From positions 1-36,369 of IMG/VR virus record IMGVR_UViG_3300032232_001056: a stretch of 36,369 nt of DNA; one strand, written 5' to 3'. The translations under genes were made by a program, and so were the position numbers. Below the pieces are notes generated by a model, which searched no databases, was not told the DNA's origin, and worked only from the letters and a program-made list of their open reading frames with translations. Below are positions 1-36,369 of the stretch, one piece after another (the first letter of the stretch is position 1; each line of letters opens with the position of its first letter). Origin of the DNA: a virus (lineage: Duplodnaviria > Caudoviricetes).

Positions 1-123
1 GCTAAAAATGGACCGCAAGGCATACTTTGTTCTCGTTGCCACCCTTATGCAGATGGGTATATTCAATTACCGCGTTTTGGCGATATTGGTTTTGAGATCG
101 CAACAAAAATAAAGGTTGGTGAA
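1..123. repeat. 123-bp terminal direct repeat (copy 1), circular-assembly overlap
   Basis: Bases 1-123 are identical to 36247-36369; the ORF starting at 36181 continues into TAA at 124-126. Confidence 0.95.
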
Positions 124-125
124 TA

Positions 126-401
126 ATGTCCTATACACTCACGGAACTTATTGAAAAATTAGAGGAATTAGTAGAGGAATATCCGGATCTGGCGGATCAG
201 AAAGTCAATATGGCTTTCCAGGAGAACTATCCGCTAGCCGGTTTGATCACTTCGGTGACCGTAATTGAGGACGATGAAGACTCAGATTGCGAATGTCCGT
301 CCACAAAATTATGCGACGAATGCCCTAAACCGAAGCTTTGGATCGGAATTCAGGATAACTACAACACTCCATACGCGCCAAAAGAGGCATGGAATGACTG
401 A
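126..401 (+). CDS. acidic hypothetical phage protein
   Basis: 91 aa ORF; TAATG coupling to the upstream wrap-around ORF; Cys cluster CECPSTKLCDEC. Confidence 0.8.
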   Translation: MSYTLTELIEKLEELVEEYPDLADQKVNMAFQENYPLAGLITSVTVIEDDEDSDCECPSTKLCDECPKPKLWIGIQDNYNTPYAPKEAWND

Positions 402-618
402 TCCTCTTGTAAGAGTTCTCAAAGATGCCCACAAGGATCTGAAACGAGCTATCGATGACGTTGAAAAACGTAAAAAAGACTTCTTAGAAATCTTGCTTAT
501 TGCCAGAAATAAGGAGGGTTGGACCTATCAAGAGATTGCCGATGTCCTCGGTATCTCCACGTCCAGGGTTCAACAGTTGGTTCGTCAGGCCCAGGGTAAG
601 AAAAGATCCAATAGATGA
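394..618 (+). CDS. sigma70 region-4-like HTH DNA-binding protein
   Basis: Start moved to ATG 394; GWTYQEIADVLGISTSRVQQLV helix-turn-helix. Confidence 0.8.
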   Translation: MTDPLVRVLKDAHKDLKRAIDDVEKRKKDFLEILLIARNKEGWTYQEIADVLGISTSRVQQLVRQAQGKKRSNR

Positions 619-1046
619 GGCTTGAATGGCCGGAATATGCGTTGGCTTTAGCTGACGTTGCTGCGCTGAGAAGCGAGGATCCCTGGCTCAAGGTTGGTGC
701 TGTAGTTCTTCGACCGGATAATTCGGTTGCAAGTATTGGCTATAACGGCGCTCCTTCTGGGATCCAAATCGATTGGGACGATCGGGAAGCTAGACGCCCG
801 TTCGTGATCCACGCTGAAGTAAACGCTCTGAGATATACAACTCCGGTCGAGGTTCGTGATGGCTTGATTGCCATTACGCATCGACCTTGCCAGGCTTGTA
901 TTCCTCTTATAGCTGCCTATGGGATCCGCCGGGTTTTCTTCGGTGTTTCTCTTGATCCGCAGGTGTATTCTGAGGATCTGCTTGATAACATTGCTGGTCA
1001 ACTCGATGTCAAAGTCGTGAACATTCCGAGGGGGAAAAATGCTTAA
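615..1046 (+). CDS. dCMP deaminase
   Basis: RSED..KVGAVV, GYNG, HAEVNAL and PCQAC zinc-deaminase motifs. Confidence 0.92.
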   Translation: MRLEWPEYALALADVAALRSEDPWLKVGAVVLRPDNSVASIGYNGAPSGIQIDWDDREARRPFVIHAEVNALRYTTPVEVRDGLIAITHRPCQACIPLIAAYGIRRVFFGVSLDPQVYSEDLLDNIAGQLDVKVVNIPRGKNA

Positions 1047-1488
1047 TCTCATATTCGAGCGCCAAAAGAAGCTTCAGGAGGAGTCATTTGGCATCGATTT
1101 TACGGATCTTTCTGATGAGGAAAGATCGCAATTCATTAAAGATATGGTCCTGGCTGCCACCGATGAGCTACACGAGGCACTTGCCGAAGTCGGTTGGAAA
1201 CCCTGGGCGACGTCTCGACACATAAATCGTGAAGCTTTTGTTGGCGAATTGGTCGATGTCCTTCACTTTATTGTCAATTTATGGCTAGCTGTAGGCGCAA
1301 CTCCGGAGGAAGTGGAGCAGCGTTATCAAGAGAAAGCTGAAAAGAACGCTAAACGTCAGAAGGAAGGATACGACGGCGTTTGGGGTAAATGTCCATCTTG
1401 TAAGCGTGCCTTTGACGATGCCGGAGTTATGTGCTCCGTTTCAGAAGGTTGCGAATATGATGACGGCTTTCCGAAAGAGGATTGCTGA
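1039..1488 (+). CDS. dimeric dUTPase/MazG-fold dNTP pyrophosphatase (possible dCTPase)
   Basis: DELHEALAEVGWKPW and ELVDVLHF motifs, K..KN..RQ..GY; C-terminal Cys cluster. Confidence 0.85.
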   Translation: MLNLIFERQKKLQEESFGIDFTDLSDEERSQFIKDMVLAATDELHEALAEVGWKPWATSRHINREAFVGELVDVLHFIVNLWLAVGATPEEVEQRYQEKAEKNAKRQKEGYDGVWGKCPSCKRAFDDAGVMCSVSEGCEYDDGFPKEDC

Positions 1489-1961
1489 TGATCACGATCC
1501 TAGAAGGTGTTGACGGCGTAGGCAAGTCAAGCCACGCAGCCTGGTTAGCTAAAGAGCAAAATGCCAAGATTCTTCACGCTGGTATCCCGCAGCATTCTCA
1601 TTGGTTTGAGGAATATATCAAGCCTTTAATGCAGCTTCCGGAGGATCAGAACGTGATCCTGGATCGCTGGCACCTGGGCGAAGCGATTTGGCCCTTCGTG
1701 TTTAACCGCAAATCACTCTTTCCACGTCCGGAATCATTCAAACTTTGCGACAATACCTTGCAAGAGCTAGGCGCTAAAGTGATTCTTATCTATCGCGACG
1801 CGGATTCTATTTCAAGCACTTTAATGCTTCGCGGCGAACAGGATCAGATCGAGACGGTTATCAAGGCCCAAGATATGTATTTTGATCTGGCTGCCACTAT
1901 GGATCATATTCAAGTGGTTAATTCCAACGATCTTCAGAGGGAGTTACCGCATGTACATTAA
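1488..1961 (+). CDS. dNMP (thymidylate-like) kinase
   Basis: P-loop ILEGVDGVGKSS and ILDRWH motif; TGATG coupling. Confidence 0.85.
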   Translation: MITILEGVDGVGKSSHAAWLAKEQNAKILHAGIPQHSHWFEEYIKPLMQLPEDQNVILDRWHLGEAIWPFVFNRKSLFPRPESFKLCDNTLQELGAKVILIYRDADSISSTLMLRGEQDQIETVIKAQDMYFDLAATMDHIQVVNSNDLQRELPHVH

Positions 1962-2787
1962 ACTAGACACGCCTTCTGAGGTGGTTGAGGTAGCTATTGG
2001 CACCTGTATCAGTCACGGATCGCCGACAACTCCTCGCGGTCAGTCCACTTTGGAAGTAAATAACGTCACCTTTGAGATCCAAAGACCCTGGTTGATGCCT
2101 TTTGACGTCAAATATAGGGATATGAAACCTTTTATTGGCGCGGTCGAAGCTCTTCAGCTGGTTGGAATGACCACAGCGCCGGAGTTGGTTATCTCCGGAT
2201 CTAAAGTCTTTGGAAACTACCTGGACGGCGGCATCTTTCACGGCGCTTATGGTCCAAGAATCTATGGACGACTTCAGCCTTTGGTTGATCTGCTTAAATC
2301 AGATCCGGATTCACGTCAGGCTGTCTTAACCATATTTGACTCTCGTCAGGATCTGGGAGCAAACGTAAAAGATGTTCCTTGTACCCTGGCGCTTCAGTTC
2401 TTTGTTCGCGACGATAAGCTCTGCATGAGAACAACCATGAGATCCAACGACGTTTGGCTAGGTTTGCCATACGATTTGGTTCAATTTACGGCGCTTCAGG
2501 GAGCTATTGCCGCAGCTTTGGGCATTGAAATGGGTTGGTATGCCCATTCCGTAGGATCGTTGCACCTATACGCAAGGGATATGGAGCAGGCGGAACAGAT
2601 CCAGGCAAGCTATGACCAAAACTGGGACTATGAACCACTTTGGTCACGAGATACAATTGAGCTTATCTCCGGCACGGCTAGAGGAATTCTCTATGGTTGG
2701 CAGGCTAATATGTATCTTGCCGGTTTGACCAAGTTTGAAACCTGGTTAGAGAATGCAGTTTTCCAGGCACGAGAACGGATTATATGA
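1951..2787 (+). CDS. thymidylate-synthase-fold enzyme, dCMP hydroxymethylase/methylase type
   Basis: AYGPR, DSRQAV, catalytic DVPC, MRSNDVWLGLPYD (Asp where dUMP-specific ThyA has Asn), SLHLY; start ATG 1951. Confidence 0.85.
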   Translation: MYIKLDTPSEVVEVAIGTCISHGSPTTPRGQSTLEVNNVTFEIQRPWLMPFDVKYRDMKPFIGAVEALQLVGMTTAPELVISGSKVFGNYLDGGIFHGAYGPRIYGRLQPLVDLLKSDPDSRQAVLTIFDSRQDLGANVKDVPCTLALQFFVRDDKLCMRTTMRSNDVWLGLPYDLVQFTALQGAIAAALGIEMGWYAHSVGSLHLYARDMEQAEQIQASYDQNWDYEPLWSRDTIELISGTARGILYGWQANMYLAGLTKFETWLENAVFQARERII

Positions 2788-3140
2788 GTCAACACCGTAA
2801 GCATCGAGGATACGCAACTCAGCGGATCTTAGCTGAGTTCTTGCAAGAGAACGGGTTTCCTTATGCTGAATCCACTGGTGCAGGACGCTCGGGTACCGAC
2901 GTCACTGGCACTATCGGGATTGATTGGGAAGTAAAGGCTCGGCGTGGGTTTCCCGTCGTTGAAACGATGGAGCAACTTAGCGATCGGGCAAAAGAAGGTT
3001 TAGTTGGAATCGCTGTACTCAGGCCCGATGGTTGGGGTCCAGCGAAGATAGCTGATTGGCCGGCAATCGTACCTTTGAGCGTCATTGTGAAGCTCTTGCG
3101 AGAAGTCGGTTATGGAGATCCAATCGAAGGGGAAAAATAA
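2784..3140 (+). CDS. Holliday-junction resolvase, PD-(D/E)XK type
   Basis: KHRG...GRSGTDVTG..IDWEVKAR motif. Confidence 0.75.
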   Translation: MSQHRKHRGYATQRILAEFLQENGFPYAESTGAGRSGTDVTGTIGIDWEVKARRGFPVVETMEQLSDRAKEGLVGIAVLRPDGWGPAKIADWPAIVPLSVIVKLLREVGYGDPIEGEK

Positions 3141-4447: not shown

Positions 4448-4454
4448 CCAAATC

Positions 4455-4501
4455 GATGCGTTCAGGATCGGTGACACCTTTCCACTGATCCTGAACGCAT
4501 C
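4455..4501 (+). terminator. 19-bp stem-loop after the SSB-like gene
   Basis: GATGCGTTCAGGATCGGTG / CACTGATCCTGAACGCATC with one G-U pair; 9-nt loop; no U-tract. Confidence 0.6.
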
Positions 4502-5808: not shown

Positions 5809-7974
5809 ATGAATCCAGCTGAAGAAGTAGTAGTAATGGGTCCTTACGAAAGATCCGCCAAAGAGTATAGAGCATTAGGTTGGCTTGACGTATTGCCATT
5901 ACCGGCAGGTAAGAAAAGCCACCCGCCAACAGGATTTACGGGAAAGAGATTTGCACATGTATCTCCCGACGATAATCAGATCCAGAACTGGATCAAGAAT
6001 AAGGGTCTTGGAAATATAGCTTTGCGCATGCCTGCCAACGTGCTCGGGATTGACGTTGACGCGTATGGAGACAAAGCCGGATCTGAAACCTTGACACGAG
6101 CCATAGCAAGTTTTGGCCCGCTGCCAGATACATGGAGAGTTACCTCTCGCGATGACGGCACGAGCGGAATTAGATTTTATAGAGTTCCGGAGGGTCTTCA
6201 GTGGCCCAATCAAGTTGGCCCTGGTATTGAAACGATCCACCGAGGTCATCGATATGCCGTAGTTTGGCCCAGCCTTCACCCTGAGGGAAGAGTTTACCGT
6301 TGGATCGGTCCGGATAACATGACGGCAATCGGCACCGGACCATCTCCTATGATCCTTCCTGAGCTACCTTCCACTTGGGTTCAAGGACTTACTCACGGTC
6401 AAGCTGCCACGGCAGCCACCGAACGGTCTGATGCGAACGCTGAAGAAATGGCTGTCGCATTTGCCGAATGGTGTACGCCGGGTAATCCTTGCTCTCTAGT
6501 AAATAGAAAGATTGACGATTTATCCGAAGCTTTATCGGGTCGATTAGGATCACGACACGATGCGGTGCGAGATCTTATGCTAAGCTTATTGCGGCTTGGT
6601 CAAACCGGTCACGCTGGAGTGGATTATGCGCTTCAGAAGACAGGTCGAGATTTTACGATGGTTGTCGGGGCTGATCGAGGAACCGTCACAGCGGATCTTG
6701 AATGGCGTCGTATGTTACTCGGCGGTATCTCTATTATCCTGGCTAATCTTCACTCACACGAGATTTGTCATGGCAAGGATTGCGACGGCAAGCTAAAGGG
6801 CATGGAGTTCAACGTAACTGAATTCCTAGCGACACCACCTCCGAGCGGTATTTCAGATCCTGAATCAGACGATGAAGAAGTATCCATTTACGCTGATCTG
6901 TCATGGTTACTCACGGGTAATGCTCCGGTTATTGATCCTCCGACTTGGATCACTAGATCCGATGGAGCTTCACTCTTCTATCAGGGACGTATTAACGGCG
7001 TGTTTGGTGATCCGGAAACGGCTAAATCCTGGCTAGCTATGTGCGCTGTGGTCGAGGGACTTCAGAAGGGCCGCAAAGCGGTTTATCTGGACGTGGATCA
7101 CAACGGATCTGGAGAAATAGCTACACGCCTTATCTCTCTTGGTGCTCCGGTAGCTTTTGTGGCTAATCCTGAGTATTTTAGGATCGCAGAACCAGAAGAC
7201 ATCATCGGACTGAGAGCTTTTATTCATGATATGCTTGAATGGAAACCGGAGATAGCGGTCGTAGATTCCCTGGGTGAAATTGTGCCCATGTTAGGTCTTA
7301 AGTCCACCGATAACGACGATATTACTAAAGCGATTCGAGCTATCTGCAAGCCTTTGGCTCACGTGATCGGCGCTTGCGTTATTACGATTGACCACTTGCC
7401 GAAGGGCGTTGATGCCAGATCCTCCGGTTATGCGATCGGCGGCACGGCTAAGAAACGTGCGGTCGACGGATCATATTTATCAGCTGAGGTTCTATTGGCA
7501 CCGGCGCCTGGTAAGCTAGGCAAGATCAGCCTTTCCATTGAGAAGGATCGTAACGGAGGACTTAGATCCGCCTCTCCTGGTAAGCATGCCGGAACGTTCG
7601 TCCTAGATTCAACGGAAGAGGGCCGAACCAAATGGCATATAGAAATGCCCACACTTTCCCACGATGGCAAGATGCGACCAACTCTTCTCATGGAAAGGTC
7701 GTCCAGATTTGTCATCGAATGGATCGGTGAAGATGCTCCGACCCGAAACGAGATAGTGAAGGGCGTAAAAGGCAAAGATTCAGCCGTGGGTCTAGCTATC
7801 GACGTTCTCGTTGAGGAAGGTTATCTATCCGAGACAAAAGACGGCGAGTCTAAAAATTCAGCCCGTCGCTTTACTTCGATCAAGGCGTATTCAAGCGCCG
7901 ATGATCCTTTATCCGATAATAACAAATCGTTATTTACTCAACCAGGGGGAAGAAATGACTTATACTTCGATTGA
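5809..7974 (+). CDS. bifunctional primase-polymerase fused to AAA/RecA-like helicase
   Basis: N-terminal LPLP..KK.P, GNIAL, GIDVD, VVWPSLHPEG; Walker A-like GDPETAKS, Walker B VVDS, IDH; C-terminal winged helix; start ATG 5809. Confidence 0.88.
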   Translation: MNPAEEVVVMGPYERSAKEYRALGWLDVLPLPAGKKSHPPTGFTGKRFAHVSPDDNQIQNWIKNKGLGNIALRMPANVLGIDVDAYGDKAGSETLTRAIASFGPLPDTWRVTSRDDGTSGIRFYRVPEGLQWPNQVGPGIETIHRGHRYAVVWPSLHPEGRVYRWIGPDNMTAIGTGPSPMILPELPSTWVQGLTHGQAATAATERSDANAEEMAVAFAEWCTPGNPCSLVNRKIDDLSEALSGRLGSRHDAVRDLMLSLLRLGQTGHAGVDYALQKTGRDFTMVVGADRGTVTADLEWRRMLLGGISIILANLHSHEICHGKDCDGKLKGMEFNVTEFLATPPPSGISDPESDDEEVSIYADLSWLLTGNAPVIDPPTWITRSDGASLFYQGRINGVFGDPETAKSWLAMCAVVEGLQKGRKAVYLDVDHNGSGEIATRLISLGAPVAFVANPEYFRIAEPEDIIGLRAFIHDMLEWKPEIAVVDSLGEIVPMLGLKSTDNDDITKAIRAICKPLAHVIGACVITIDHLPKGVDARSSGYAIGGTAKKRAVDGSYLSAEVLLAPAPGKLGKISLSIEKDRNGGLRSASPGKHAGTFVLDSTEEGRTKWHIEMPTLSHDGKMRPTLLMERSSRFVIEWIGEDAPTRNEIVKGVKGKDSAVGLAIDVLVEEGYLSETKDGESKNSARRFTSIKAYSSADDPLSDNNKSLFTQPGGRNDLYFD

Positions 7975-9100
7975 TTGCCAATCGTTCGCAGGTGGATTTA
8001 CGCTAGGAAATAAGCTAGCAGGATTCGAAATCATCGGAAAGCGTGAAGCTACCGGAGGGTTTGGAGTACCGGCGGTAGAAGGTAACAAAAAGTTACTTGG
8101 CGACTTCAGCATAGAAGCTGGCGCTCCAGATACTTGGACGCCTCTTAAGGCTGATCTAGTGTTCGGAAATCCTCCTTGCTCAGGCTTCTCGAACCGATCC
8201 AGTATGGTCCGAGGACTAGACGAGAACGGAGAGATCCAGAGAGTTCAGTACACCGGATACGCAGCGGCGCCTAACCAATGCATGTGGGATCTGATCGAAT
8301 ACGCTGCCAAGTGTGATCCGGAGATTGTTATCTTTGAATCTGTCCAGGGCGCCTATAACAAGGGCCGAGACCTCATGCAGGATCTAAGAAATAGCCTTGA
8401 GATGAAAACCGGCAGCCAATACCACCTTTATCATGTTCTTCATGATGTAGCTAAGCTAGGTGGAGCTCAGGAACGCAAGAGATATTTCTGGGTTGCTGCC
8501 AGGATCAAGTTCGGAGTCGATCCGGTCGAGATCAGCCCTACTACGGTCAAAGATCGCATCGGTGACCTTGAGAACGTTGCTCTAGGATCGATGAACGGTC
8601 ACCAGATCGAGGATACTCCCCGAGGTCGTCGGGTAACTGAGCTAGCGTCCAAAGTGGAATGGAAAGCGAACGAGGTATCAGGAGACGTGTATCGACGGGC
8701 CCTGGATCTTGGTGCTGATCTTGAACTTTGGGACGAGGATCTAAAGAGCGATAAGGGTATTACCCAATTTGCTCCAAAGAGACTGAGCTACGACACCCCT
8801 TCAAATGTCCTTGCCGGAGATGCCCTTTGGCGTCAGGTTCACCCAACTTTGCCCCGGACTTTGACACACCGGGAAGTTGCTCGGCTGTCCGGGTTCCCCG
8901 ATGATTGGGACTGTGAGCCGTATCAGGATCGTAAAGCTAATGCTTACTGGTGGGGAAAAGGGATCTGTATTGAAGCCGGAAAGTGGATCTCAACTGCGGC
9001 TTACGATGCCATTTCGGGCCAACCTCAAGCTTACCAGGGTGAGATTATTGGTGATCGAGAGAGCCTTATTGACTTCAGCAAGGCTAAAAAAAATGGATAA
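7955..9100 (+). CDS. C5-cytosine DNA methyltransferase-fold enzyme with atypical cofactor motifs
   Basis: Motif IV GNPPCSGFS, VI IFESV, VIII QERKR, IX RTLTHREVARLSGFPDDW; motif I DCQSFAGGF and motif X WGKGI are non-canonical; GGGGGA RBS before ATG 7955. Confidence 0.85.
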   Translation: MTYTSIDCQSFAGGFTLGNKLAGFEIIGKREATGGFGVPAVEGNKKLLGDFSIEAGAPDTWTPLKADLVFGNPPCSGFSNRSSMVRGLDENGEIQRVQYTGYAAAPNQCMWDLIEYAAKCDPEIVIFESVQGAYNKGRDLMQDLRNSLEMKTGSQYHLYHVLHDVAKLGGAQERKRYFWVAARIKFGVDPVEISPTTVKDRIGDLENVALGSMNGHQIEDTPRGRRVTELASKVEWKANEVSGDVYRRALDLGADLELWDEDLKSDKGITQFAPKRLSYDTPSNVLAGDALWRQVHPTLPRTLTHREVARLSGFPDDWDCEPYQDRKANAYWWGKGICIEAGKWISTAAYDAISGQPQAYQGEIIGDRESLIDFSKAKKNG

Positions 9101-9350
9101 ATTTAACACTTGTACTGATTGCGGAAGGTTAAATCTTGGTCTTTGGCGTTGCAATTGCACCCAAAACGGCTCAGTTCCTCCCACTCCTCCCAGTTCCTCC
9201 CAAGTTCCTCCCAGCCTAACCTCTGATGACCCAAAAAGAGGTTCCTCCCGTTCCTCCCGTTCCTCCTTAAGAGGAGGAACGGAGAGGGAGGAATCTCTTG
9301 GATCAGACAATTCAATAAATACCAAAAGCTCCTCCCAGGATCTTAGATGA
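9093..9350 (+). CDS. hypothetical protein overlapping the iteron-like repeats
   Basis: ATG 9093 overlaps the MTase end; CTDC..CNC then Ser/Pro low complexity; ATGA coupling to 9347. Confidence 0.45.
   Translation: MDKFNTCTDCGRLNLGLWRCNCTQNGSVPPTPPSSSQVPPSLTSDDPKRGSSRSSRSSLRGGTEREESLGSDNSINTKSSSQDLR
9174..9336. repeat. (G)TTCCTCCC iteron-like array, candidate replication origin
   Basis: About 8 direct TCCTCC(C) copies plus inverted GGAGGAA copies; perfect 11-bp inverted repeat 9257-9267/9272-9282. Confidence 0.65.
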
Positions 9351-13510: not shown

Positions 13511-14724
13511 TGAGTCTCATACGCCGTGGAGTCGTGGGTCGTTACCCGCAATTTAACAACTATGTAGCACCACTGTCTCAACTCTACGGACAGACAAACA
13601 TTACAAGTGCCGCCGGAGAACGCATCGATGAGTGGACTGCTCTTGGAGTTTCAGCTGTTCTAGGATCTGTTTCATTACTAGCGGACACCATTGCATCAAT
13701 GCCACTTAAGCAATACAAGATGGTTAAGGGCAAAAGAGTTCCGGTAGAACTATCTGATGTACTAAAAAATCCAGATCCTGAATCAAATACCTTTGAGCTT
13801 ATTCACCAAATGGTATTCTCTTGTGCTCTTCACGGTAATGCTTATATTCATATTGACCGCAATCGCAGCGGAAATATGATTGGTTTAGTTCCTTTGCACC
13901 CTTATCAGATGCAAGTTCTTCCAACTGGAGATCAAGTTGGACGTAAGTATCTGCACCTTGGAAACGCGCTTGACTCTCAGGATCTGATTCACATGCGTTG
14001 GCTAACACCTCCACAATCTTTGGTTGGTGTTTCTCCCATGATCCAGAATAGAAATCTTATTGGTATTGCAATGGCTATGGATCGCCACATTTCACAATTT
14101 TACGGAGAAGGTGCAACACCTTCTTCAGTTCTTGAGACGGATCAGAAGCTTACTTTAGATCAGGCTCGAACAATTCAAGGAACTTTTGAAGCTACTCACC
14201 GTCGTCATCGTCGCGTAGCGGTACTTACAGACGGATTAAAGTGGAAGCCAATTACATCTTCTGCTGCAGATCAGCAAATGATTGAAACTCGCGAGCAACT
14301 CATTAGAGATATTGCTCGCGTATTTCGTATTCCTTCGCACCTTATTCTTGCTTCAGGAGATAACCAGACATACCAGAACGTTGAACAAGCTTCATTGAAC
14401 TTCCTTCAACACACAATCGCGCCGTGGCTTTGCCGCGTAGAAGATGCGTTAAGTCGTATTCTTCCTGACGGCACTGACGTTGCGTTTGATACTTCAATCC
14501 TTCTTCGCACTGATGCAATGACTCGTGCTGAAGTTGGAAAGATCCTGGTATCAACTGGTCTACGCTCACCAAACGAATTACGTCAACAAGACGGATTTGA
14601 GCCTTACAGTGGTGGAGATGTCTTTAACCAGGCATTCCAGGGAACACTTACAACCGGTCCAGATACAGCTCCACTTGGTACTGATTCAGATACTTCAGTA
14701 CCGGTTATGGGAGTCGTTGAATAA
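13510..14724 (+). CDS. HK97-family portal protein
   Basis: IASMPL, LHGNAY, GVSP, IARVFRIP, NVEQ, SPNELR. Confidence 0.95.
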   Translation: MSLIRRGVVGRYPQFNNYVAPLSQLYGQTNITSAAGERIDEWTALGVSAVLGSVSLLADTIASMPLKQYKMVKGKRVPVELSDVLKNPDPESNTFELIHQMVFSCALHGNAYIHIDRNRSGNMIGLVPLHPYQMQVLPTGDQVGRKYLHLGNALDSQDLIHMRWLTPPQSLVGVSPMIQNRNLIGIAMAMDRHISQFYGEGATPSSVLETDQKLTLDQARTIQGTFEATHRRHRRVAVLTDGLKWKPITSSAADQQMIETREQLIRDIARVFRIPSHLILASGDNQTYQNVEQASLNFLQHTIAPWLCRVEDALSRILPDGTDVAFDTSILLRTDAMTRAEVGKILVSTGLRSPNELRQQDGFEPYSGGDVFNQAFQGTLTTGPDTAPLGTDSDTSVPVMGVVE

Positions 14725-16121
14725 TGTCTGAAACATATCGCGTACCTAAGATAGTTCTTGAAGAGGGAATTAAAAATCCTGCAATGACTCTTGAAGAAGT
14801 TGTTCAATTACGTGATTCTTGGGAAGGTCCCGAGGGTCGCGAGTGGGCAATGAATATCTGCAAAAATATTACACGCGATGCTCTTATCGTTTCTCAAAAG
14901 TACAAGGAGACAAACATGGCGGCAGCCGATATGGAAACACCGGATCTTGCGGAGGAGTTAAAAGAACTTCTAGCTGATGTTGTTTCTTTTTACTTCAAAG
15001 CTCACGGTGCACACTGGAACGTGATGGGAACTGACTTCAGCGAATATCACGGACTCTTTGAAGAAATTTACTCTGATGCTTATTCAAGCGTCGATCCAAT
15101 TGCAGAAAATATTCGTAAGCTTGGAAAGCCTGCACCATTTCAACTAGCGGCTTTTGCTGCGATGAGTGAGATTCCGCAGGATCTTGCAATCATTACTGAT
15201 GCTCGTGCTCTTGCTATGGATATTCTTTCTGCAAATGATATGATTATTGAAGAGCTTTCAGAGGTATTTGCTTGCGCTACAATGCATAATCAGCAAGGAA
15301 TTGCAAACTTTTTAGCCGATCGTATTGACTCTCATCAGAAGTGGAAGTGGCAATTATCATCTTCTCTTGGTGTAGATGTAGTAAATCCAGATCCAGAAGT
15401 TATGCCGGAAAGCCCTATTGAGGATCTTAACGAGCCTGCTGCAGACTGGATTGCTCCAGAAACTATGGCGCGAGGATCAGAAACATCAGAAAAAATTGAA
15501 ATTACCTCCGAGGAGATAACAGTGATTGAAGATCGTAAGACTGCTATGGCTTCAGCGGAACGCATCACAATGCATGCTGAGGTTCGCGCCGTAGATACTG
15601 AAGATGGATCGCTTAAGGTTGGCGGATACGCTGCAACATTTAACCAGGAAGCAACCGGTCTTCAATTCCGTGAAGTTATTGCTCAAGGAGCTTTTACTCG
15701 CACGCTTCAGACTGATAATCCGGTCTTTTTACTTGTAAATCACAATATGGACGACCTACCATTGGCATCAACTCAGTCCGGAACGCTTCGTTTGGCCCAG
15801 GATAAAGTTGGTTTGTACATGGAAGCATCTCTTGATCCTGCAAACCCACGCGCTCAAGAACTAGCTTCGGCTGTTCGTCGCGGTGACGTTGACAAGATGA
15901 GCTTTGCATTTACGGTTGCTCAAGATGGAGAAACTCGCGAAGAAGGTCTTCGTACTCTTACGGATCTGGATCTTTACGAAGTTTCTGTTGTAACTTGGCC
16001 CGCATACGATTCAACAACCGTTGGAATGCGATCAGCTCAGGATCAGGATCTTGAAATCAAAAAGCAAAAGCTTGCTTTGAAAGTAAAACAATATTCCCTA
16101 CGTTCTAAGCGTAAGGGTTAA
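14724..16121 (+). CDS. Dps/ferritin-like domain fused to HK97 prohead protease
   Basis: Dps signature HGAHWNVMG.DF..YH.LFEE.Y......D.IAE (about 14940-15370); protease motifs GYAATFN, LVNHN, MSFAF, LYEVSVVTWPAY (about 15580-16040). Confidence 0.9.
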   Translation: MSETYRVPKIVLEEGIKNPAMTLEEVVQLRDSWEGPEGREWAMNICKNITRDALIVSQKYKETNMAAADMETPDLAEELKELLADVVSFYFKAHGAHWNVMGTDFSEYHGLFEEIYSDAYSSVDPIAENIRKLGKPAPFQLAAFAAMSEIPQDLAIITDARALAMDILSANDMIIEELSEVFACATMHNQQGIANFLADRIDSHQKWKWQLSSSLGVDVVNPDPEVMPESPIEDLNEPAADWIAPETMARGSETSEKIEITSEEITVIEDRKTAMASAERITMHAEVRAVDTEDGSLKVGGYAATFNQEATGLQFREVIAQGAFTRTLQTDNPVFLLVNHNMDDLPLASTQSGTLRLAQDKVGLYMEASLDPANPRAQELASAVRRGDVDKMSFAFTVAQDGETREEGLRTLTDLDLYEVSVVTWPAYDSTTVGMRSAQDQDLEIKKQKLALKVKQYSLRSKRKG

Positions 16122-17531: not shown

Positions 17532-17567
17532 TGGCGCTGATCCTGTCTTCGGATAGGATCAGCGCCA
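17532..17567 (+). terminator. 16-bp hairpin with cUUCGg tetraloop after the capsid gene
   Basis: TGGCGCTGATCCTGTC-TTCG-GATAGGATCAGCGCCA. Confidence 0.75.
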
Positions 17568-17592: not shown

Positions 17593-17739
17593 ATGCAATC
17601 AATATTTTTAGAAGCTTTGATTACAGCTCGCGATTTAGTCCAAAAAAAGGGATTAGATGCGCTAGAAGCACTGATTAAAGAACATGAATTAGGCATTATC
17701 GAGACAACTGCGATCCTTCCGGAGGTTGAAACTCGATGA
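17593..17739 (+). CDS. 48-aa hypothetical protein (not in ORF track)
   Basis: AAGGGGAAG RBS; MQSIFLEAL...PEVETR; ATGA overlap with the GT gene. Confidence 0.65.
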   Translation: MQSIFLEALITARDLVQKKGLDALEALIKEHELGIIETTAILPEVETR

Positions 17740-18446
17740 AAAATAAAGACAAAATAGCCATCGGAATGGTTAACGATGGATCTATAAATGCTAATTTAGT
17801 GGTTGATTTACTGCAAATTAGAGGCAAAAGAACTGAAAGATTTGACTGTTTTATACAAGTTTCTAACATTGGATTACTCACAAGATCTAGAAACTTGCTT
17901 GTAAAGAACTTTTTGGAGCAATCAAACGCAGCTTGGTTGCTTATGATGGACTCCGATGAGCGTTTAGAGTTAGAAACTTGGGATAAACTAGTTTCTGCAG
18001 CTCATGAGAAGGATCGTCCGGTGATTTCTGCGCTAGTTTTTGCAGCTTTCTTTGATGATGATGTATCTTTACGCCCTGTACCTACCATTTATCGTGATCT
18101 TCCCGGATCTGGTTTGCAAGCTATTGATGATTATCCAATAAATGAGGTAATTAAGATTGATGCTGCCGGAACAGGCTGTTTATTGATCCATAGATCCGTT
18201 TTATTAGAGTTACAAGCCAAAGCAACTGAAAACCAGGGTAAAGACTGGGCTTGGTTTGTTGATGGAGCTATTGGTGGGCGCTGGTTTGGCGAAGATTTAC
18301 TATTTAGTAAGCGTCTTGGATCGCTAGGAATACCGATCCACGCGCACACCGGCGCGATATGTGCCCATAATAAGACTTTTTGGTTAGATCAGAGGCATCA
18401 CAAACTATTTCGTGATGCTGCTATTGATAGTAAAGCATCAGATTAG
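17736..18446 (+). CDS. GT-A fold (family 2-like) glycosyltransferase
   Basis: RN.LV..FL, WLLMMDSD (DxD), AGTGCLLIHR, GEDL.F. Confidence 0.85.
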   Translation: MKNKDKIAIGMVNDGSINANLVVDLLQIRGKRTERFDCFIQVSNIGLLTRSRNLLVKNFLEQSNAAWLLMMDSDERLELETWDKLVSAAHEKDRPVISALVFAAFFDDDVSLRPVPTIYRDLPGSGLQAIDDYPINEVIKIDAAGTGCLLIHRSVLLELQAKATENQGKDWAWFVDGAIGGRWFGEDLLFSKRLGSLGIPIHAHTGAICAHNKTFWLDQRHHKLFRDAAIDSKASD

Positions 18447-18475
18447 TCGTTACCCCCTGGCGACTAATCTGATGC
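18435..18475 (+). terminator. 15-bp perfect hairpin with C-rich loop
   Basis: GCATCAGATTAGTCG / CGACTAATCTGATGC around TTACCCCCTGG; no U-tract. Confidence 0.55.
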
Positions 18476-18495
18476 CCTAAATTAAAGGAGAATAC

Positions 18496-22581
<4,086 letters not shown>

Positions 22582-22591
22582 CGCTAAAGAA

Positions 22592-22744
22592 ATGGAAAAT
22601 GAAATGACAGAAGAAATATTGACTGCTGCGCAACTTAAAAGAATTGCAGTTGCTGAAGCAGCGAAAGCCGCTAAGGCATCAGGCAAAGCAAAGTTAGAAG
22701 CACTTGGTCTAACGAATGAAGAAGTAGAAGCATTGTTTAACTAA
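22592..22744 (+). CDS. small fibre-associated (chaperone-like) protein
   Basis: KASGKAKLEALGLTNEEVEAL C-terminus, directly after the fibre gene; start 22592 or 22604. Confidence 0.65.
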   Translation: MENEMTEEILTAAQLKRIAVAEAAKAAKASGKAKLEALGLTNEEVEALFN

Positions 22745-22763
22745 CGCAAAAGGAGAACGGGCA

Positions 22764-23072
22764 ATGGAACTAACAGCTGAAGAATTAGCAGCATTGACAC
22801 CTGATGAGCAGGCTGTTTATGCCGAGTATCTTGCTGAAACTAAGATTGCTACCGAGAAATTAGAAAAGCATTTTGTTGGTTTGCAAGCTAGCGTTGATCT
22901 TATCAACTCTCTTGTTGCGTCGAGTGATAAATCAGAGAAAACACTCGACAGGATCACGCGCAACTATAAGCACATTGAGATCATGCTTGCACAGGATTAC
23001 ATTGCAAATGATCCGAGAGATAAGACTGTATTTCTCGATGCAGTAATCTTGGCTAAATCAGCTTTGAATTAG
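22764..23072 (+). CDS. hypothetical protein
   Basis: 102 aa helical ORF with AAGGAG RBS. Confidence 0.75.
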   Translation: MELTAEELAALTPDEQAVYAEYLAETKIATEKLEKHFVGLQASVDLINSLVASSDKSEKTLDRITRNYKHIEIMLAQDYIANDPRDKTVFLDAVILAKSALN

Positions 23073-23095
23073 TAATATCAATACATGGGGGAAAG

Positions 23096-24148
23096 ATGAA
23101 GATCGCTATTTATACCATTGCATTAAATGAGGCAAGCTTTATTGAGCGCTGGTACAAAAGCGCTAAAGATGCAGATTATCTTCTTATAGCCGATACAGGA
23201 TCAACGGATCTTACCGTCAAATATGCCCAAAATCTAGGGATAAATGTGATCCGGATTGGTGTTAAACCTTGGCGCTTTGATGATGCCAGAAACGCGGCTT
23301 TGGCGGCTCTTCCGCTCGATATAGATTATTGCATAGCTTTAGATATGGACGAGGAACTTCAACCTGGCTGGCGTCAGGAATTGGAAGCTTTAGGATCTGA
23401 AATCACTCGTCCCAGATATAAGTACATTTGGTCATGGAATCCCGACGGATCGCCTGGTCTCAGCTACGGAGGGGACAAGATCCATTCACGATCTGGGTAT
23501 CGCTGGAAGCACCCGGTTCATGAGGTCCTGACATATCAGGGGGCTGAAATTCAAGGCTGGACAAAGCTGGAAATTCATCATCACCCAGATGATACAAAAT
23601 CCAGAGGTCAATACTTTCCTCTTCTACGGTTGGCTGTTTCAGAGGATCTAGAAGACGATCGAAATGCCTTTTATTATGCTCGTGAGCTATTTTTTAACAA
23701 TTATTATACAGAAGCCACTAAAGAATTTTTGCGGCATCTAGCCCTCCCACGAGCGGTATGGAAACCGGAACGAGCCGCATCGATGAGATACTTGGCAAAA
23801 ATGGACGAATCAAATCGTGAATCCTGGTTAATGAAAGCTATTGCAGAATCTCCTAATAGCCGCGAACCTCGCGTGGATCTTGCTGAGCATTATTACACCA
23901 AAGAATTATGGCTTGATTGCCACACGGCGGCAAAATCAGCCCTTCGCATTACACAACAACCGCTGGAATATCTTGTAGAATCGGAAGCCTGGGGATACCT
24001 GCCTCACGATTTGATCGCGATTTCAGCGTATCGTCTTGAAAAATATGAAGAAGCTATTGAGCATGGTCGTAAAGCGGCTGAGTTTGCTCCCTGGATCGAT
24101 CGGTTAAAGACCAATCTTGAATATTACGAAGGAGCTATAAGTGAGTAA
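23096..24148 (+). CDS. GT2 glycosyltransferase with C-terminal TPR repeats
   Basis: IALNE, ADTGSTD, FDDARN, LDMDE, HPVHE, FYYAREL and TPR-like helices. Confidence 0.9.
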   Translation: MKIAIYTIALNEASFIERWYKSAKDADYLLIADTGSTDLTVKYAQNLGINVIRIGVKPWRFDDARNAALAALPLDIDYCIALDMDEELQPGWRQELEALGSEITRPRYKYIWSWNPDGSPGLSYGGDKIHSRSGYRWKHPVHEVLTYQGAEIQGWTKLEIHHHPDDTKSRGQYFPLLRLAVSEDLEDDRNAFYYARELFFNNYYTEATKEFLRHLALPRAVWKPERAASMRYLAKMDESNRESWLMKAIAESPNSREPRVDLAEHYYTKELWLDCHTAAKSALRITQQPLEYLVESEAWGYLPHDLIAISAYRLEKYEEAIEHGRKAAEFAPWIDRLKTNLEYYEGAISE

Positions 24149-32644: not shown

Positions 32645-32660
32645 CCCGAAAGGGCGCCAA

Positions 32661-32915
32661 ATGTCATCAGACGTAGCCACTGTTATTTATTCTTATTTCT
32701 TTATAGCGGTATCTTTGCTGACCGGTATTGGATTTGTAGCTAAACATTCAATACGCAAGCACACCGAAGAACTTAAGGTTAAACTTAACAGGATTGAATA
32801 CGCTCTTTACAACGATGGCAAGACTGGTCTCATCAATAAGGTGGATCAGCTTATTGAAAATCAACAGTGTATCCGGATCGATGTTGAGATCCTAAAATCA
32901 AAGGCTGAAGAATGA
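32661..32915 (+). CDS. single-TM membrane protein of the lysis module
   Basis: Start ATG 32661; N-terminal TM, LYNDGKTGL..KVD coiled coil; overlaps endolysin. Confidence 0.7.
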   Translation: MSSDVATVIYSYFFIAVSLLTGIGFVAKHSIRKHTEELKVKLNRIEYALYNDGKTGLINKVDQLIENQQCIRIDVEILKSKAEE

Positions 32916-33412: not shown

Positions 33413-33420
33413 GAGAACCC

Positions 33421-33618
33421 ATGAATAAAGATAAAGCCATTGCTGTTGTTATGACCTACGCTCGCGCTGCTGTTCCTTCCGTCCTGGCAATGTATGCCGG
33501 AGGAATTACAGATCCTAAAGTGTTGGCGTATGCCTTCATTTCCGCCTTCATCGCTCCACTCTGGAAGGCTATTGATCCTAAAGCCACCGAGTTTGGGAAG
33601 AATTCGACGAATAAGTAA
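33421..33618 (+). CDS. holin-like membrane protein
   Basis: Two hydrophobic segments, P..KAIDP....FG; directly after endolysin. Confidence 0.7.
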   Translation: MNKDKAIAVVMTYARAAVPSVLAMYAGGITDPKVLAYAFISAFIAPLWKAIDPKATEFGKNSTNK

Positions 33619-34020
33619 ATGTCTGAAGAAACGAAGCGCTGCTTTGATTGCGGGAAAGTCAAGTCCTTAGACAACTTTCCTCGCGACGCAAGGCGGCCCG
33701 ACGGACGAAGAGAGGTTTGCGGAGAATGCCGCAGCGCTCATCGCCGGGCTATCAAGTCTGCAGATTATGACCAGATCCTGATCGATCAGGATCATAAATG
33801 CGGCATTTGTAAAGTCCATATTGACGAGTACCCTAGAAAGTTCAGCGTGGATCACAACCACGAGGATTACTCAATCCGAGGGCTACTTTGCGGAAACTGC
33901 AACGTAGCTATCGGTATGTTCGGTGAGGATATTGAGTTCCTAAAGTCAGCTATAGGGTATCTTATGCATCACAAAACAACAATAATCCAGGGGGAAACAT
34001 GGACAGAGACGGAATCTTAG
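33619..34020 (+). CDS. endonuclease VII-family nuclease
   Basis: CFDC..K....F, CGEC, Q...CGIC, VDHNH...IRGLLC.NCN..IG. Confidence 0.88.
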   Translation: MSEETKRCFDCGKVKSLDNFPRDARRPDGRREVCGECRSAHRRAIKSADYDQILIDQDHKCGICKVHIDEYPRKFSVDHNHEDYSIRGLLCGNCNVAIGMFGEDIEFLKSAIGYLMHHKTTIIQGETWTETES

Positions 34021-34262
34021 GCGAGGCATCGCAGTTAATTTACGGAGATCGGCAAGATGATTACGGATCTCCGGAGGACAATTTTGGTCGCATGGCTAAA
34101 TTGTGGAGCGTAGTCCTAGGAATTGAAGTAGAAATGTGGCAAGTTGCCCTGTGTATGAACCAGGTAAAGGTTGCCAGATTAGTAAATCAGCCAGCTAAGG
34201 TGGACGGCTGGATCGATGGAGCGGCTTATATGGCGCTCGGCGGTGAATTAGCCACTGAATAA
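33999..34262 (+). CDS. DUF6378-like protein (nucleotide-pyrophosphatase-like fold)
   Basis: GDRQ.DYGSP.DNF.R.A.LWS, KVAR, DGW.D.AAY. Confidence 0.75.
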   Translation: MDRDGILGEASQLIYGDRQDDYGSPEDNFGRMAKLWSVVLGIEVEMWQVALCMNQVKVARLVNQPAKVDGWIDGAAYMALGGELATE

Positions 34263-34268
34263 TTAAGA

Positions 34269-34340
34269 AAGCCTGCTCGCGCAGTTGATCCTGGAAACCC
34301 CTTCTTCCAGTAGATCCTACGCGAGCAGGCTTCTTTTTTT
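34269..34340. terminator. long bidirectional intrinsic terminator between convergent operons
   Basis: AAGCCTGCTCGCG/CGCGAGCAGGCTT stem, inner CTGGAA/TTCCAG stem, downstream T-tract and upstream A-rich tract. Confidence 0.85.
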
Positions 34341-34491
34341 ATTTGGAAGAGTAATACTCCTCCAATTGGCGTTGACGGGCACGCTCGCATGCCCAATTAA
34401 AGATCCTCCACAGGATCACCGGGACCGTATAAACAGTAGTAAAGACCAAAAATAGGAAAGTCCAGGATTCTAAAGGCGTCATTGGGAACAT
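34339..34491 (-). CDS. 50-aa membrane protein (not in ORF track)
   Basis: MFPMTPLESWTFLFLVFTTVYTVPVILWRIF...; TAATG coupling. Confidence 0.65.
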   Translation of the reverse strand: MFPMTPLESWTFLFLVFTTVYTVPVILWRIFNWACERARQRQLEEYYSSK

Positions 34492-34640
34492 TATTTTTCT
34501 CCATTCTTTTTGTATAGCTCAACGAGAACTTCTCTTTGAGCGCGTTTACGATCCTGGATCGCCGGAAAGAGCCTTAATTCACGGATTTCAAGATCCAATT
34601 TGGCAATTCTCATGACAATAAGACGTTGATTTTCGTTCAT
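34491..34640 (-). CDS. 49-aa hypothetical protein (not in ORF track)
   Basis: MNENQRLIVMRIAKLDLEIREL...; ATGA coupling to the upstream gene. Confidence 0.65.
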   Translation of the reverse strand: MNENQRLIVMRIAKLDLEIRELRLFPAIQDRKRAQREVLVELYKKNGEK

Positions 34641-34837
34641 GATGCGTCAGATTTACCTTTCTCTAGGAACTTGTAATAGTCAAAATTGCTATTTACCAGG
34701 GCAATCTGATCCGCAATGATGGTTGTAGCCAGATCCACGGCAAGTTCCGGAGTATAAAGTCCGGATTCTTGAACGCAATGCTTAGCTAAACTTAAAGCTC
34801 CGGCAATCAATTCGTAGTCTTTTTTGGTCATAGCCAT
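34637..34837 (-). CDS. hypothetical protein
   Basis: MTKKDYELIA...N.NFD..KF pattern; part of the coupled leftward operon. Confidence 0.75.
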   Translation of the reverse strand: MAMTKKDYELIAGALSLAKHCVQESGLYTPELAVDLATTIIADQIALVNSNFDYYKFLEKGKSDAS

Positions 34838-34839
34838 GT

Positions 34840-35337
34840 TTATGCACCAACCTTCATTAAAAGCGCGTCAACGCGAACATATTTCTGGATCGAAGAGTCC
34901 CAAACTTCCGCTGTTGGAAGTTGGTTTACAATGGAGTAAAGCGCATTCGTGTCTGCAATTGTCGCATTTTTCAATTTATATTGTTCGACGTTTGGTAATC
35001 CTGGGTAAATCTCGTCGCCAACAACACGAACAACAATAGATTTCTTGGAATCTTTATTGTTTTCAGAAATTTCAATAATCAATTCCACTGCCATTTCTTC
35101 AGAATTTTCGTCATTCTTATGACGTTCAGTCCAATGTCCTTCGCAGTTTTCTAAGAACCATTCGCGAAGACGCACAATTTCTGAATCTTGATCGTCGATC
35201 CAACTGATCCATAGTGATCCGCCGTTACCCTGATCCTCAACAGTAGCAATTCGCTTTCCGTCACGGTAAAGAGTTCCAGTTAGTGCAACTCCATTATGAG
35301 TTGAAAGCTTCTTGATGTTTTTCATTTCGTATGTCAT
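34840..35337 (-). CDS. hypothetical early protein
   Basis: GAAGGG RBS; LYRDGKRIA.VEDQGNGG motif; first gene of the leftward operon. Confidence 0.8.
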   Translation of the reverse strand: MTYEMKNIKKLSTHNGVALTGTLYRDGKRIATVEDQGNGGSLWISWIDDQDSEIVRLREWFLENCEGHWTERHKNDENSEEMAVELIIEISENNKDSKKSIVVRVVGDEIYPGLPNVEQYKLKNATIADTNALYSIVNQLPTAEVWDSSIQKYVRVDALLMKVGA

Positions 35338-35390
35338 TTGTCTTACCCTTCTGTATATCCACCGGGCCCGTCGCCCGGTTTCATAGGATC

Positions 35391-35419
35391 ATTCTACTCC
35401 CGTGGAGTAGGAAAAGCAC
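35391..35419 (-). promoter_or_regulatory. leftward sigma70-type promoter overlapped by a palindrome
   Basis: On the - strand GTGCTT-N17-TAGAAT; CTACTCC-cgt-GGAGTAG inverted repeat at 35394-35410. Confidence 0.55.
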
Positions 35420-35443
35420 AGTATAGATAAGTATGTTTCTTAG

Positions 35444-35466
35444 AGGGGGGGGAGCCCCCCTATTTT
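35444..35466 (+). other. G/C homopolymer hairpin between the divergent promoters
   Basis: AGGGGGG-GGAG-CCCCCCT followed by ATTTT. Confidence 0.5.
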
Positions 35467-35492
35467 GAACGTAAAATTTAGATCCAGGATAC

Positions 35493-35522
35493 TTCCCTTT
35501 AACTAATCCCTGGGTATAGAAT
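35493..35522 (+). promoter_or_regulatory. rightward early promoter
   Basis: TAGAAT -10 at 35517-35522, weak -35; GAAGGGGT RBS and ATG 35569 downstream. Confidence 0.5.
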
Positions 35523-35568
35523 AAGGACATCGATCCGGACGAACGGGAAGGATCGAGAAGGGGTAAAA

Positions 35569-35733
35569 ATGTTAAAAGTAGGAATGGCAGTAGAAGTTAC
35601 TCATATCAATGGAACTGAAATTGGTGGCATTGAATCAATTAACTATAAGACAGGAAAAGTTCTTGTAGCTTTTGGTACAGGATCATCATTAAACTTTTGT
35701 AACTTTAACATCAATCAAGTAAAGGCGCTCTAA
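35569..35733 (+). CDS. 54-aa SH3/KOW-like small protein (not in ORF track)
   Basis: MLKVGMAVEV...G.IESIN..TGKVLVAF; strong RBS; TAATG coupling. Confidence 0.7.
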   Translation: MLKVGMAVEVTHINGTEIGGIESINYKTGKVLVAFGTGSSLNFCNFNINQVKAL

Positions 35734-36023
35734 TGTCAACATCACGCCGCGTTCGAGTAACTCTTGAAAATAATGAATATGTCCTGGTTCCAAAGTATTT
35801 AGTCAAAGATATGGTTGGAATTGACGAATATGGAAATCCAATTGTCCGTGAAACTGAAGCGCCATTTGCTGGAAAGTTGATTGGATACACAAATTGCTGC
35901 GGATCTTCCGCAAAAGGTTGCGATGGATATATTGGCTGCCGTGATTGTTATCGCGAAGTCGAGTCATATCTTGGCGCTCCAATGTCTGAATCTCACGTCT
36001 ATTTGAAAGTGAAGGCAGCATAA
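35733..36023 (+). CDS. hypothetical protein with Cys motifs
   Basis: TNCCG..AKG...YIGCRDCY. Confidence 0.75.
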   Translation: MSTSRRVRVTLENNEYVLVPKYLVKDMVGIDEYGNPIVRETEAPFAGKLIGYTNCCGSSAKGCDGYIGCRDCYREVESYLGAPMSESHVYLKVKAA

Positions 36024-36181
36024 TGACCACAAAAGAAGAAGCTTTGAAGTTGTACGACGAAGGAATTCCCACAATGATTGAGGATCGTTTTTTACGATCC
36101 ATGTTAAATGGTCATCGTTGGGGTTGGCATCAAACTTTATTCATGATGTGTCCGGCGTGTGAACGTCAGGCGGCGTCATAA
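36023..36181 (+). CDS. 52-aa hypothetical protein (not in ORF track)
   Basis: MTTKEEALKLYDEG...H..GWH....MCPACE; TAATG coupling on both sides. Confidence 0.7.
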   Translation: MTTKEEALKLYDEGIPTMIEDRFLRSMLNGHRWGWHQTLFMMCPACERQAAS

Positions 36182-36369
36182 TGAGCGATTATTCACAACA
36201 AATAATTGTCTGCGAGTCTTGTAAAAATACAATGATGAAAAGCACTGCTAAAAATGGACCGCAAGGCATACTTTGTTCTCGTTGCCACCCTTATGCAGAT
36301 GGGTATATTCAATTACCGCGTTTTGGCGATATTGGTTTTGAGATCGCAACAAAAATAAAGGTTGGTGAA
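36181..36369 (+). CDS. 63-aa Zn-finger protein spanning the circular junction (stop at 124-126)
   Basis: MSDYSQQIIVCESC...LCSRC...KVGE, then TAA supplied by bases 124-126. Confidence 0.75.
   Translation, partial: MSDYSQQIIVCESCKNTMMKSTAKNGPQGILCSRCHPYADGYIQLPRFGDIGFEIATKIKVGE
36247..36369. repeat. 123-bp terminal direct repeat (copy 2)
   Basis: Identical to 1-123. Confidence 0.95.

Follow-up and report, generated by a model that had tools for sequence, protein, structure and literature searches.

A GGATC excess and a candidate enzyme acting on it in a phage with a predicted 5-hydroxymethylcytosine pathway

Introduction

Why would a phage fill its genome with a short DNA word of the kind that phage genomes normally purge? 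Few such excesses have been reported (e.g., in cluster B3 mycobacteriophages) and these are unexplained. The question is raised by a tailed-phage genome of 36,369 nucleotides (IMG/VR record IMGVR_UViG_3300032232_001056; the whole stretch is called the window below), in which words containing GATC are strongly over-represented. The same genome encodes a predicted pathway for 5-hydroxymethylcytosine (hmC) and a look-alike of C5-cytosine methyltransferases with a lysine at a conserved position of the cofactor pocket, here called the lysine-type enzyme. The excess obeys a sharp rule on its flanking bases, the genome that bears it also encodes a candidate enzyme, and natural loss of the gene among relatives serves as a control.

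We propose that GGATC is the target of the lysine-type enzyme on hmC-containing DNA and that the marked sites protect the genome. Taken as a whole we regard this as an even call, because we infer the chemistry and the benefit and because the link to the target is comparative. Computation shows the excess and its flank rule, a preferential retention of sites, the gene signature for hmC, the changes in the cofactor pocket, and the association of the excess with one enzyme subclade. The open papers that we searched gave no account of the lysine-type enzyme family or of a GGATC excess, and hmC-containing GGATC is the first concrete substrate prediction that we found for this widespread family with its rebuilt cofactor pocket. 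If true, the excess of a genomic word would reveal the specificity of a DNA-modifying enzyme, and there would be a new route of DNA hypermodification and possibly a tool for sequence-specific labelling of 5-hydroxymethylcytosine.

The excess consists of GGATC with restricted flanks

The window is a complete circular phage genome (G000 in our set, classed as complete with direct terminal repeats), and bases 36247-36369 duplicate the first 123 bases as a terminal overlap. GATC occurs 361 times genome-wide, against 139 expected from base composition. Our main null consisted of 200 within-gene synonymous codon shuffles of the 48 window genes, which preserve each protein and thereby its dipeptides. 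Compared with these shuffles, genes contain 336 GATC vs. 193 (z 15, the top 4-mer) and 245 GGATC/GATCC vs. 107 (z 18, the top 5-mer), so that GGATC is carried at more than twice the rate required by the window proteins. A preliminary description of this DNA had named a ratio near 1 after codon shuffling as the outcome that should undo its claim, and these counts lie far from it. Its hand counts were exact (17 GATC in 1-1200, 13 of them in GGATC/GATCC context; 16 in 8101-8760, 10 in context), and it was right that codon use is insufficient as an explanation: the excess is present in all three frames and both orientations (163 vs. 65 and 82 vs. 42), and the non-coding DNA of the window holds 22 sites in 2,462 nt where about 4 are expected. 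Codon use or a Markov artefact as the source of the excess is thus rejected by the codon shuffles, which we used instead of first-order Markov ratios because the latter overstated GATC in TS-only phages (TS, thymidylate synthase homologue).

The flanking bases define the enriched unit. GGATC not preceded by G and not followed by C (HGGATCD) occurs 227 times vs. 79 under codon shuffles, whereas GATC without the 5' G or 3' C (HGATCD) lies at expectation (94 vs. 92). Extended versions are not raised, i.e., GGGATC (8 vs. 11) and the palindrome GGATCC (4 vs. 8), whose noted scarcity was borne out with sites only at 677, 760, 922, and 10207. The GATC excess therefore consists wholly of H-GGATC-D, and GATC as the enriched unit has to be given up.

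1..36246, both orientations: H-GGATC-D sites, 267 GGATC/GATCC matches (170 + 97, 4 of them shared in GGATCC), mean gap 135 bp

The spacing of these sites is near random (coefficient of variation of the gaps 0.98) and slightly evener than under a constraint-aware null that samples the 628 positions where a site could arise (p 0.002). A Chi-like or otherwise evenly spaced signal motif would show one-strand polarity and a lattice, but both orientations are raised and the evenness is mild.

Several other accounts of the word pattern were tried and dropped. Protection by a multispecific methylase (or of GGNCC) was suggested by raised CCGG (165/102), CCWGG (91/55), and AGCT (242/184) in the window, but the pattern is not subclade-wide: within the enzyme subclade described below, CCWGG exceeds 1.3x in 5/10 and AGCT in 4/10, and the apparent GGCC rule is a loss of WGGCCW. 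General modification of CC (CCD) is unsupported, with CCA, CCG, and CCT at 0.88-1.06 in the subclade. The low site density in the capsid gene is explained by its amino acids (2 vs. 1.1) rather than by a cost to transcription, and an amino-acid imprint of GGATC is weak and present in controls too.

GGATC sites look selected as sites

Wherever four letters of the motif are present and the remaining one falls on a free wobble position, the completing base is preferred, and this holds for all five positions: 69/201 vs. 36 at position 1, 48/84 vs. 20 at position 2, 103/120 vs. 59 for A3, 74/77 vs. 52 for T4, and 58/77 vs. 22 for C5. Mutational protection specific to C is rejected by this result, as A:T positions are favoured too. 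We also compared the window with single relatives for the retention of 5-mers at positions that encode the same amino acids. GGATC was the best-retained 5-mer relative to G016 (73/100 kept, 45 expected; first of 412 words), G017 (60/83 kept, 36 expected; first of 335 words), and G012 (first of 271 words), and its retention was ordinary in the same test against G001, G002, and G011. Differences from G001 at GGATC sites comprise transitions and transversions at all five positions.

The motif also occurs in three terminator-like hairpins:

4455..4501, + strand: hairpin 3' of the 3941-4447 gene; its stem pairs GGATC with GATCC
17532..17567, + strand: hairpin 3' of the major capsid gene, with a GATCC/GGATC pair in the stem
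34258..34343, + strand: hairpin where gene blocks converge, with two GATCC copies

The matching hairpin of the first lacks a GGATC site in 5/5 relatives. In the second, the GATCC/GGATC pair is replaced by other, still paired bases in G016, G012, and G001, while the sites of the third are also found in G016, G017, and L177 and in neither G012 nor G001.

Since synonymous sites favour every letter of the motif and no other 5-mer is better retained in the comparisons with three relatives, the sites look selected as sites. The positive selection suggested earlier for GATC thus stands for the longer word, with modification targets as the best supported of the options then offered, and falls for GATC itself, which is not enriched.

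The excess follows one subclade of the lysine-type enzyme

To relate motif and enzyme, one codon-shuffle null was applied to 127 genomes and loci (loci below 9 kb excluded) together with metagenome loci of at least 4.5 kb; 110 records with the enzyme were dereplicated to 61 and placed in a quick IQ-TREE tree. One clade of 14 rows contains 10 loci with GGATC at 1.7-2.3x (z 4-20) that vary in G+C content (43-57%), TS type (two types), and terminase (37-100% identical). Among the 47 enzyme rows outside this clade GGATC ranges over 0.7-1.9x, with 2/47 at 1.75x or above, and it lies at 0.44-1.15 in 14 related records without a TS or enzyme match (several of them incomplete).

Natural loss of the gene offers a control. 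L177 is the sister of G016 (support 100/100, four module genes) and has no enzyme gene at the syntenic place, where the gene of the primase-polymerase (prim-pol) runs straight into the downstream element. L177 lacks 20 of the sites that the window has in common with G016, and the reverse is seen twice (Fisher p 0.002 vs. control 5-mers); the same test with G017 gives 19 vs. 4 (p 0.018). With three overlapping open reading frames (ORFs) removed, the losses are 20/45 for L177 vs. 2/27 for the reverse, spread over 10 genes. For G001, which is likewise without the enzyme, the loss test gives 58 vs. 1. On this comparative support, we think it fairly probable that GGATC is the target of the lysine-type enzyme.

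A predicted hydroxymethylcytosine gene module

Four linked genes at 615-2787 have the composition of a pathway that would load hmC into DNA:

615..1046, + strand: deoxycytidine monophosphate (dCMP) deaminase (PHROG 174, PF00383)
1039..1488, + strand: all-alpha dUTPase/dCTPase-like (MazG-type) pyrophosphatase (PHROG 18650, PF08761)
1488..1961, + strand: deoxynucleoside monophosphate (thymidylate-type) kinase (PHROG 761, weak PF02223)
1951..2787, + strand: thymidylate-synthase homologue, predicted 5-hydroxymethyl-dCMP synthase (D141 = L143D, D175 = N177D, D167 = D169 kept)

The TS homologue has the CMP 5-hydroxymethylase MilA as its best match in the PDB (E 3e-25), and its Asp141, Asp167, and Asp175 are invariant in 40/40 aligned homologues. 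In the portions of PMC13326640 and PMC8670742 cited here, N177D and L143D/E with D169 kept are the signature of 5-hydroxymethyl-dCMP synthases, while D169N marks 5-hydroxy-dCMP synthases. Since its Asp signature fits these rules, the protein is predicted to be a 5-hydroxymethyl-dCMP synthase rather than a thymidylate or 5-hydroxy-dCMP synthase. For the pyrophosphatase we infer specificity for dCTP.

If hmC replaces cytosine in the virion, restriction sites that it protects should no longer be avoided. We took the 128 sites listed as resistant on 5-hydroxymethylcytosine-containing T4gt DNA (Table S1 of PMC7653180) and scored a site as avoided when depleted more than twofold. Nine phages with the module avoid 12-26 of them and eight module-less relatives 37-68, without overlap (p 0.0006, for lineages that are not independent); the window avoids 18/128. 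Fourteen sites that are cleavable on T4gt DNA are avoided by both groups alike. On this indirect measure, the virion DNA of the window phage is predicted to contain hmC. T4gt DNA is also Dam-methylated (PMC7653180), so that its resistance to AlwI, MboI, and DpnII is no proof of protection by hmC. The 5-methylcytosine-containing DNA of phage Xp12 is cut by MboI and DpnII according to the same source, so that genomes with modified cytosine may be vulnerable at GATC.

The window is purged of GGATG (5 vs. 54), GATATC, TTATAA, and ATTAAT, all of which are cut on T4gt DNA. Loss of GGATG/CATCC is seen in the window and several phages with the hmC module; relatives without the module do not show it, although FokI-type enzymes would cleave the DNA of either group. 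The purge could reflect an hmC-dependent nuclease. WGGCCW is purged in the window despite its hmC genes. In the hmC phages G031, G032, G034, and G035, 4-mers made of A and T only (TTAA, ATAT, or AATT) are nearly eliminated, and several have also lost GTAC; cytosine modification gives such sites little or no protection. Another hmC phage, G002, carries four genes of no clear family between kinase and pyrophosphatase (L133:2829-6039, one with a weak PALP match), possibly a different hypermodification set, and its clade over-represents AGATCT/AGATCA.

The lysine-type enzyme keeps catalytic residues but has a rebuilt cofactor pocket

7955..9100, + strand: lysine-type C5-cytosine-methyltransferase look-alike, predicted to act on GGATC (PF00145; residues numbered from the Thr after Met)

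This protein scores 75 bits against PF00145 (cut-off 22) and 42 bits against TIGR00675 (cut-off 101), and its predicted structure (predicted local distance difference test score 91) has M.HaeIII as the best fold match. The hallmarks of C5-cytosine methyltransferases in fold and catalysis, i.e., the PC motif, the Glu of motif VI, and the RxR of motif VIII, are kept as C74, E127, R173, and R175; in a family alignment of 172 rows, C74 and E127 are present in 170/172 and R173 and R175 in 169/172. The features that bind S-adenosylmethionine (SAM) are changed: Q8 and F10 stand in place of F7 and G9 of the HaeIII motif I (FxGxG), and the motif X Asn (of GNA) is K334, a lysine in 167/172 rows. Replacement of the motif I Phe and Gly goes along with near-invariant Lys28 and Arg29 across the 172 rows.

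The family keeps company with hmC genes. TS matches in enzyme loci were dCMP-type in 16/16 cases, in two lineages, and a pyrophosphatase was found in 44/51 of the first loci, 49/51 of which carry a clear enzyme homologue. Searching the ESM Atlas with the enzyme returned viral C5-methylase clusters only. No Dam or N4/N6 methylase (PF02086, PF01555, PF05869) was found in any of five genomes including the window (0/5 each), and the carboxy-SAM (Cx-SAM) synthase CmoA (TIGR00740) had no match at E<=1 in the one genome searched, that of the window phage. C5-cytosine methyltransferases can couple thiols to 5-hydroxymethylcytosine (PMC7176277) and can remove its hydroxymethyl group without SAM (PMC11347137), as reported in the portions of these papers cited here. 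Separately, a canonical C5 methylase split over two ORFs (L150:7432-8663) was seen in G022, a temperate relative without the module in which GATC is purged unless it is part of GGATCA or GGATCG.

A proposed mechanism and its rivals

In the mechanism that we propose, the TS-like enzyme, kinase, pyrophosphatase, and deaminase would provide hmC for incorporation into DNA in the manner of T4. The lysine-type enzyme would then flip an hmC in GGATC/GATCC and attack its C6 with Cys74, and the hydroxyl would be swapped, without SAM, for a small and probably anionic nucleophile held by Lys334, Lys28, and Arg29. A second, probably protective mark would thereby be added to hmC DNA, and the phage would have accumulated H-GGATC-D by synonymous and non-coding change. 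The more densely the sites lie (roughly one every 135 bp), the greater the benefit may be, e.g., if a host nuclease attacking hmC DNA were blocked or tied up, which is speculation on our part. A bolder form of this proposal is that these virus-only look-alikes of cytosine methylases, working without SAM, carry out an undescribed sequence-specific reaction on hmC DNA that creates a new base at GGATC, and that the phage multiplies this target in genes and terminator stems; we advance it tentatively and give it less than an even chance.

A number of observations weigh against the proposal that marking by this enzyme drives the excess. Sparse marks would leave most hmC unhidden, and the evenness test gave p 0.04-0.96 in five relatives. 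Within the enzyme clade, G033 (1.1x), L242 (1.0x), L261 (0.9x), and the long-branch L047 lack the excess, and G033 favours CGATC despite carrying the enzyme. The complete genome of G012 has the hmC module and no PF00145 match, yet GGATC is still at 1.8x; it retains 40/58 shared sites vs. 19, its loss of shared sites is slower than that of control words (0.53 vs. 0.69), and it gains new sites, with 58 sites private to it, so that a very recent loss of the gene must be assumed. L177 has 15 private sites vs. 18 in G016 once the three overlapping ORFs are removed, and its branch has thus not been neutral throughout. A host-side factor is suggested by module-less G022, where other GATC is purged (9 vs. 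74) and GGATCA kept (35 vs. 19). Related words are favoured without the enzyme in a low-G+C TS-only clade (AGATCT/AGATCA, about twofold) and in L200 (GATC, 1.7x). Finally, the enzyme subclade is confounded with habitat or host, its lineages are not independent, and the tree is a quick one.

Some of these points recur in the explanation that we consider a serious rival even if unlikely on balance, in which the host marks GGATC as self by means of a GGATC methylase or of phosphorothioates at GATC, phages gain from more taggable sites, and the enzyme co-travels with hosts or strips hydroxymethyl groups for host marking. It would account for the persistence of the excess in enzyme-less G012 and for the sparing of GGATC (0.84-1.0) amid purged other GATC (0.13-0.52) in module-less G022, G023, G004, and G018. 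It does not sit well with the decay of sites in the enzyme-less close kin L177 and G001, with an excess that tracks the enzyme tree across differing phage backbones, or with the fourteen module-less records at 0.44-1.15. A host-side mark could also combine with our proposal if the enzyme uncovers sites for host marking. Improbable in our view is a mutational drive without any fitness benefit, akin to the HIP1 model of cyanobacteria, in which repair or conversion bias directed by a mark restores and creates GGATC and the phage enzyme supplies the mark. This would equally predict that all positions are retained, that every substitution type contributes gains, that spacing is near random, and that sites decay after gene loss. 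However, a scan of 51 ORFs turned up neither a Vsr-like nor a glycosylase partner, the T-variants GGATT and GAATC are not consistently depleted in the window (1.04, 0.84), and the paired changes in a terminator stem and the mild evenness fit selection somewhat better.

Slightly less probable again is that the genome is only partly hmC and the enzyme, as a CmoX-like or ordinary orphan methylase, alkylates leftover unmodified C at GGATC with SAM or Cx-SAM. The lysine does occupy the position of CmoX Arg350 and of the engineered N374K of M.MpeI (in the portion of PMC12783734 cited here), the ribose-binding Glu is retained, and WGGCCW is still purged as if hmC cover were incomplete. Opposed to this are the lack of CmoA in the phage genome, NPPC and Lys instead of SPPC and Arg, the replaced motif I residues, and the association of the family with dCMP hydroxymethylases that would pre-fill C5. 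Least credible is a by-product in which hmC lifts restriction pressure and avoidance of the neighbouring words GGATG and GGATCC pushes sequence into GGATC. Both words are indeed depleted in the window, and avoidance is relaxed generally in hmC phages, but the roughly 50 lost GGATG are too few to yield the 135-150 or so additional sites, and GGATA and GGATT show no rise (1.21, 1.04). The excess is also present in G031, where GGATG is not lost, and absent from G001 despite its hmC genes, two cases that largely refute this reading.

Genome context and host

Profile scans of the 51 ORFs identified siphovirus-like head and tail genes, the prim-pol, and an exonuclease. The host is probably an actinobacterium, because three relatives carry WhiB genes and cultured homologues occur in phages of Gordonia, Micrococcus, and Actinomycetia. 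Cultured carriers of the lysine-type family include Gordonia phages Forza and GMA2, Micrococcus phage Kurnik, and DSL-LC01. Scans of genome contigs with the terminase and the enzyme gave nothing useful toward host identity, and cultured phages gave no near DNA match to window bases 1-24000; the listed sequencing runs that match the window are DNA runs labelled freshwater or lake, with no RNA run among them. Just 3' of the prim-pol gene, a non-coding-looking block at 9170-9300 has TTCCTCCC-type direct repeats opposite an inverted purine-rich copy; it is kept in 6/6 relatives with or without the enzyme gene and is possibly a replication origin. Among the virion genes, a 1361-aa collagen-repeat protein lies between two glycosyltransferases (17736-24148), which suggests virion glycosylation, and a ferritin-like (Dps-like) domain is fused onto the prohead protease (14724-16121).

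Comparison with known systems

The predicted pathway resembles that of T4 and MilA in that a single operon combines a kinase, a pyrophosphatase, a deaminase, and a dCMP-type TS homologue with Asp at positions 143 and 177, and it shares with T4-type phages a relaxed avoidance of C-containing restriction sites. Post-replicative hypermodification has precedents in T4 glucosylation and in carbamoylation of 5-hydroxymethylcytosine (as given in the cited portion of PMC8670742). However, the window has no glycosyl- or carbamoyltransferase beside the module (its two glycosyltransferases lie among virion genes); its candidate for the second step has the fold of a C5-cytosine methyltransferase and an apparent 5-bp target that is over-represented in the genome.

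With CmoX of Synechococcus phage S-B43 (PDB 8YF3) and M.MpeI N374K, the enzyme shares this fold and a basic residue in place of the motif X Asn. CmoX, as the cited portion of PMC12783734 describes it, has SPPC and an Arg at the position of HhaI N304, needs Cx-SAM, and acts at GC on unmodified C. The window enzyme differs in its NPPC and Lys, its rebuilt motif I, the absence of CmoA and CmoY from its genome, and its coupling to 5-hydroxymethyl-dCMP synthesis. The likeness to mycobacteriophages raised in the preliminary description proved loose. Cluster B3 (described in the cited portion of PMC4841201) also combines an actinobacterial phage with a genome-wide, unexplained excess of GATC-containing words, but GGATCC is enriched in the first 20 kb of its member Phaedrus (27 vs. 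9) and excluded from the window, and no mycobacteriophage is among the 60 of 68 tblastn enzyme records listed. ParB-like and PAPS-reductase-like genes lie in the same first 20 kb of Phaedrus (L332:73-2040), and a separate enzyme behind its GGATCC excess is possible.

Orphan Dam and C5 methyltransferases of phages similarly shield a short site with a phage-encoded enzyme, while the window has no Dam or N4/N6 methylase, an asymmetric motif, and altered SAM-binding motifs; the adenine methylase gene and flank-independent GATC excess of Dam-type enrichment are both absent. Judged from its genes and words, the window system lies outside canonical C5 methylases, CmoX systems, Dam-type enrichment, and the B3 pattern and would work like T4-type two-step hypermodification. 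What is new in the present work is the motif predicted as the enzyme's target and the comparison based on gene loss.

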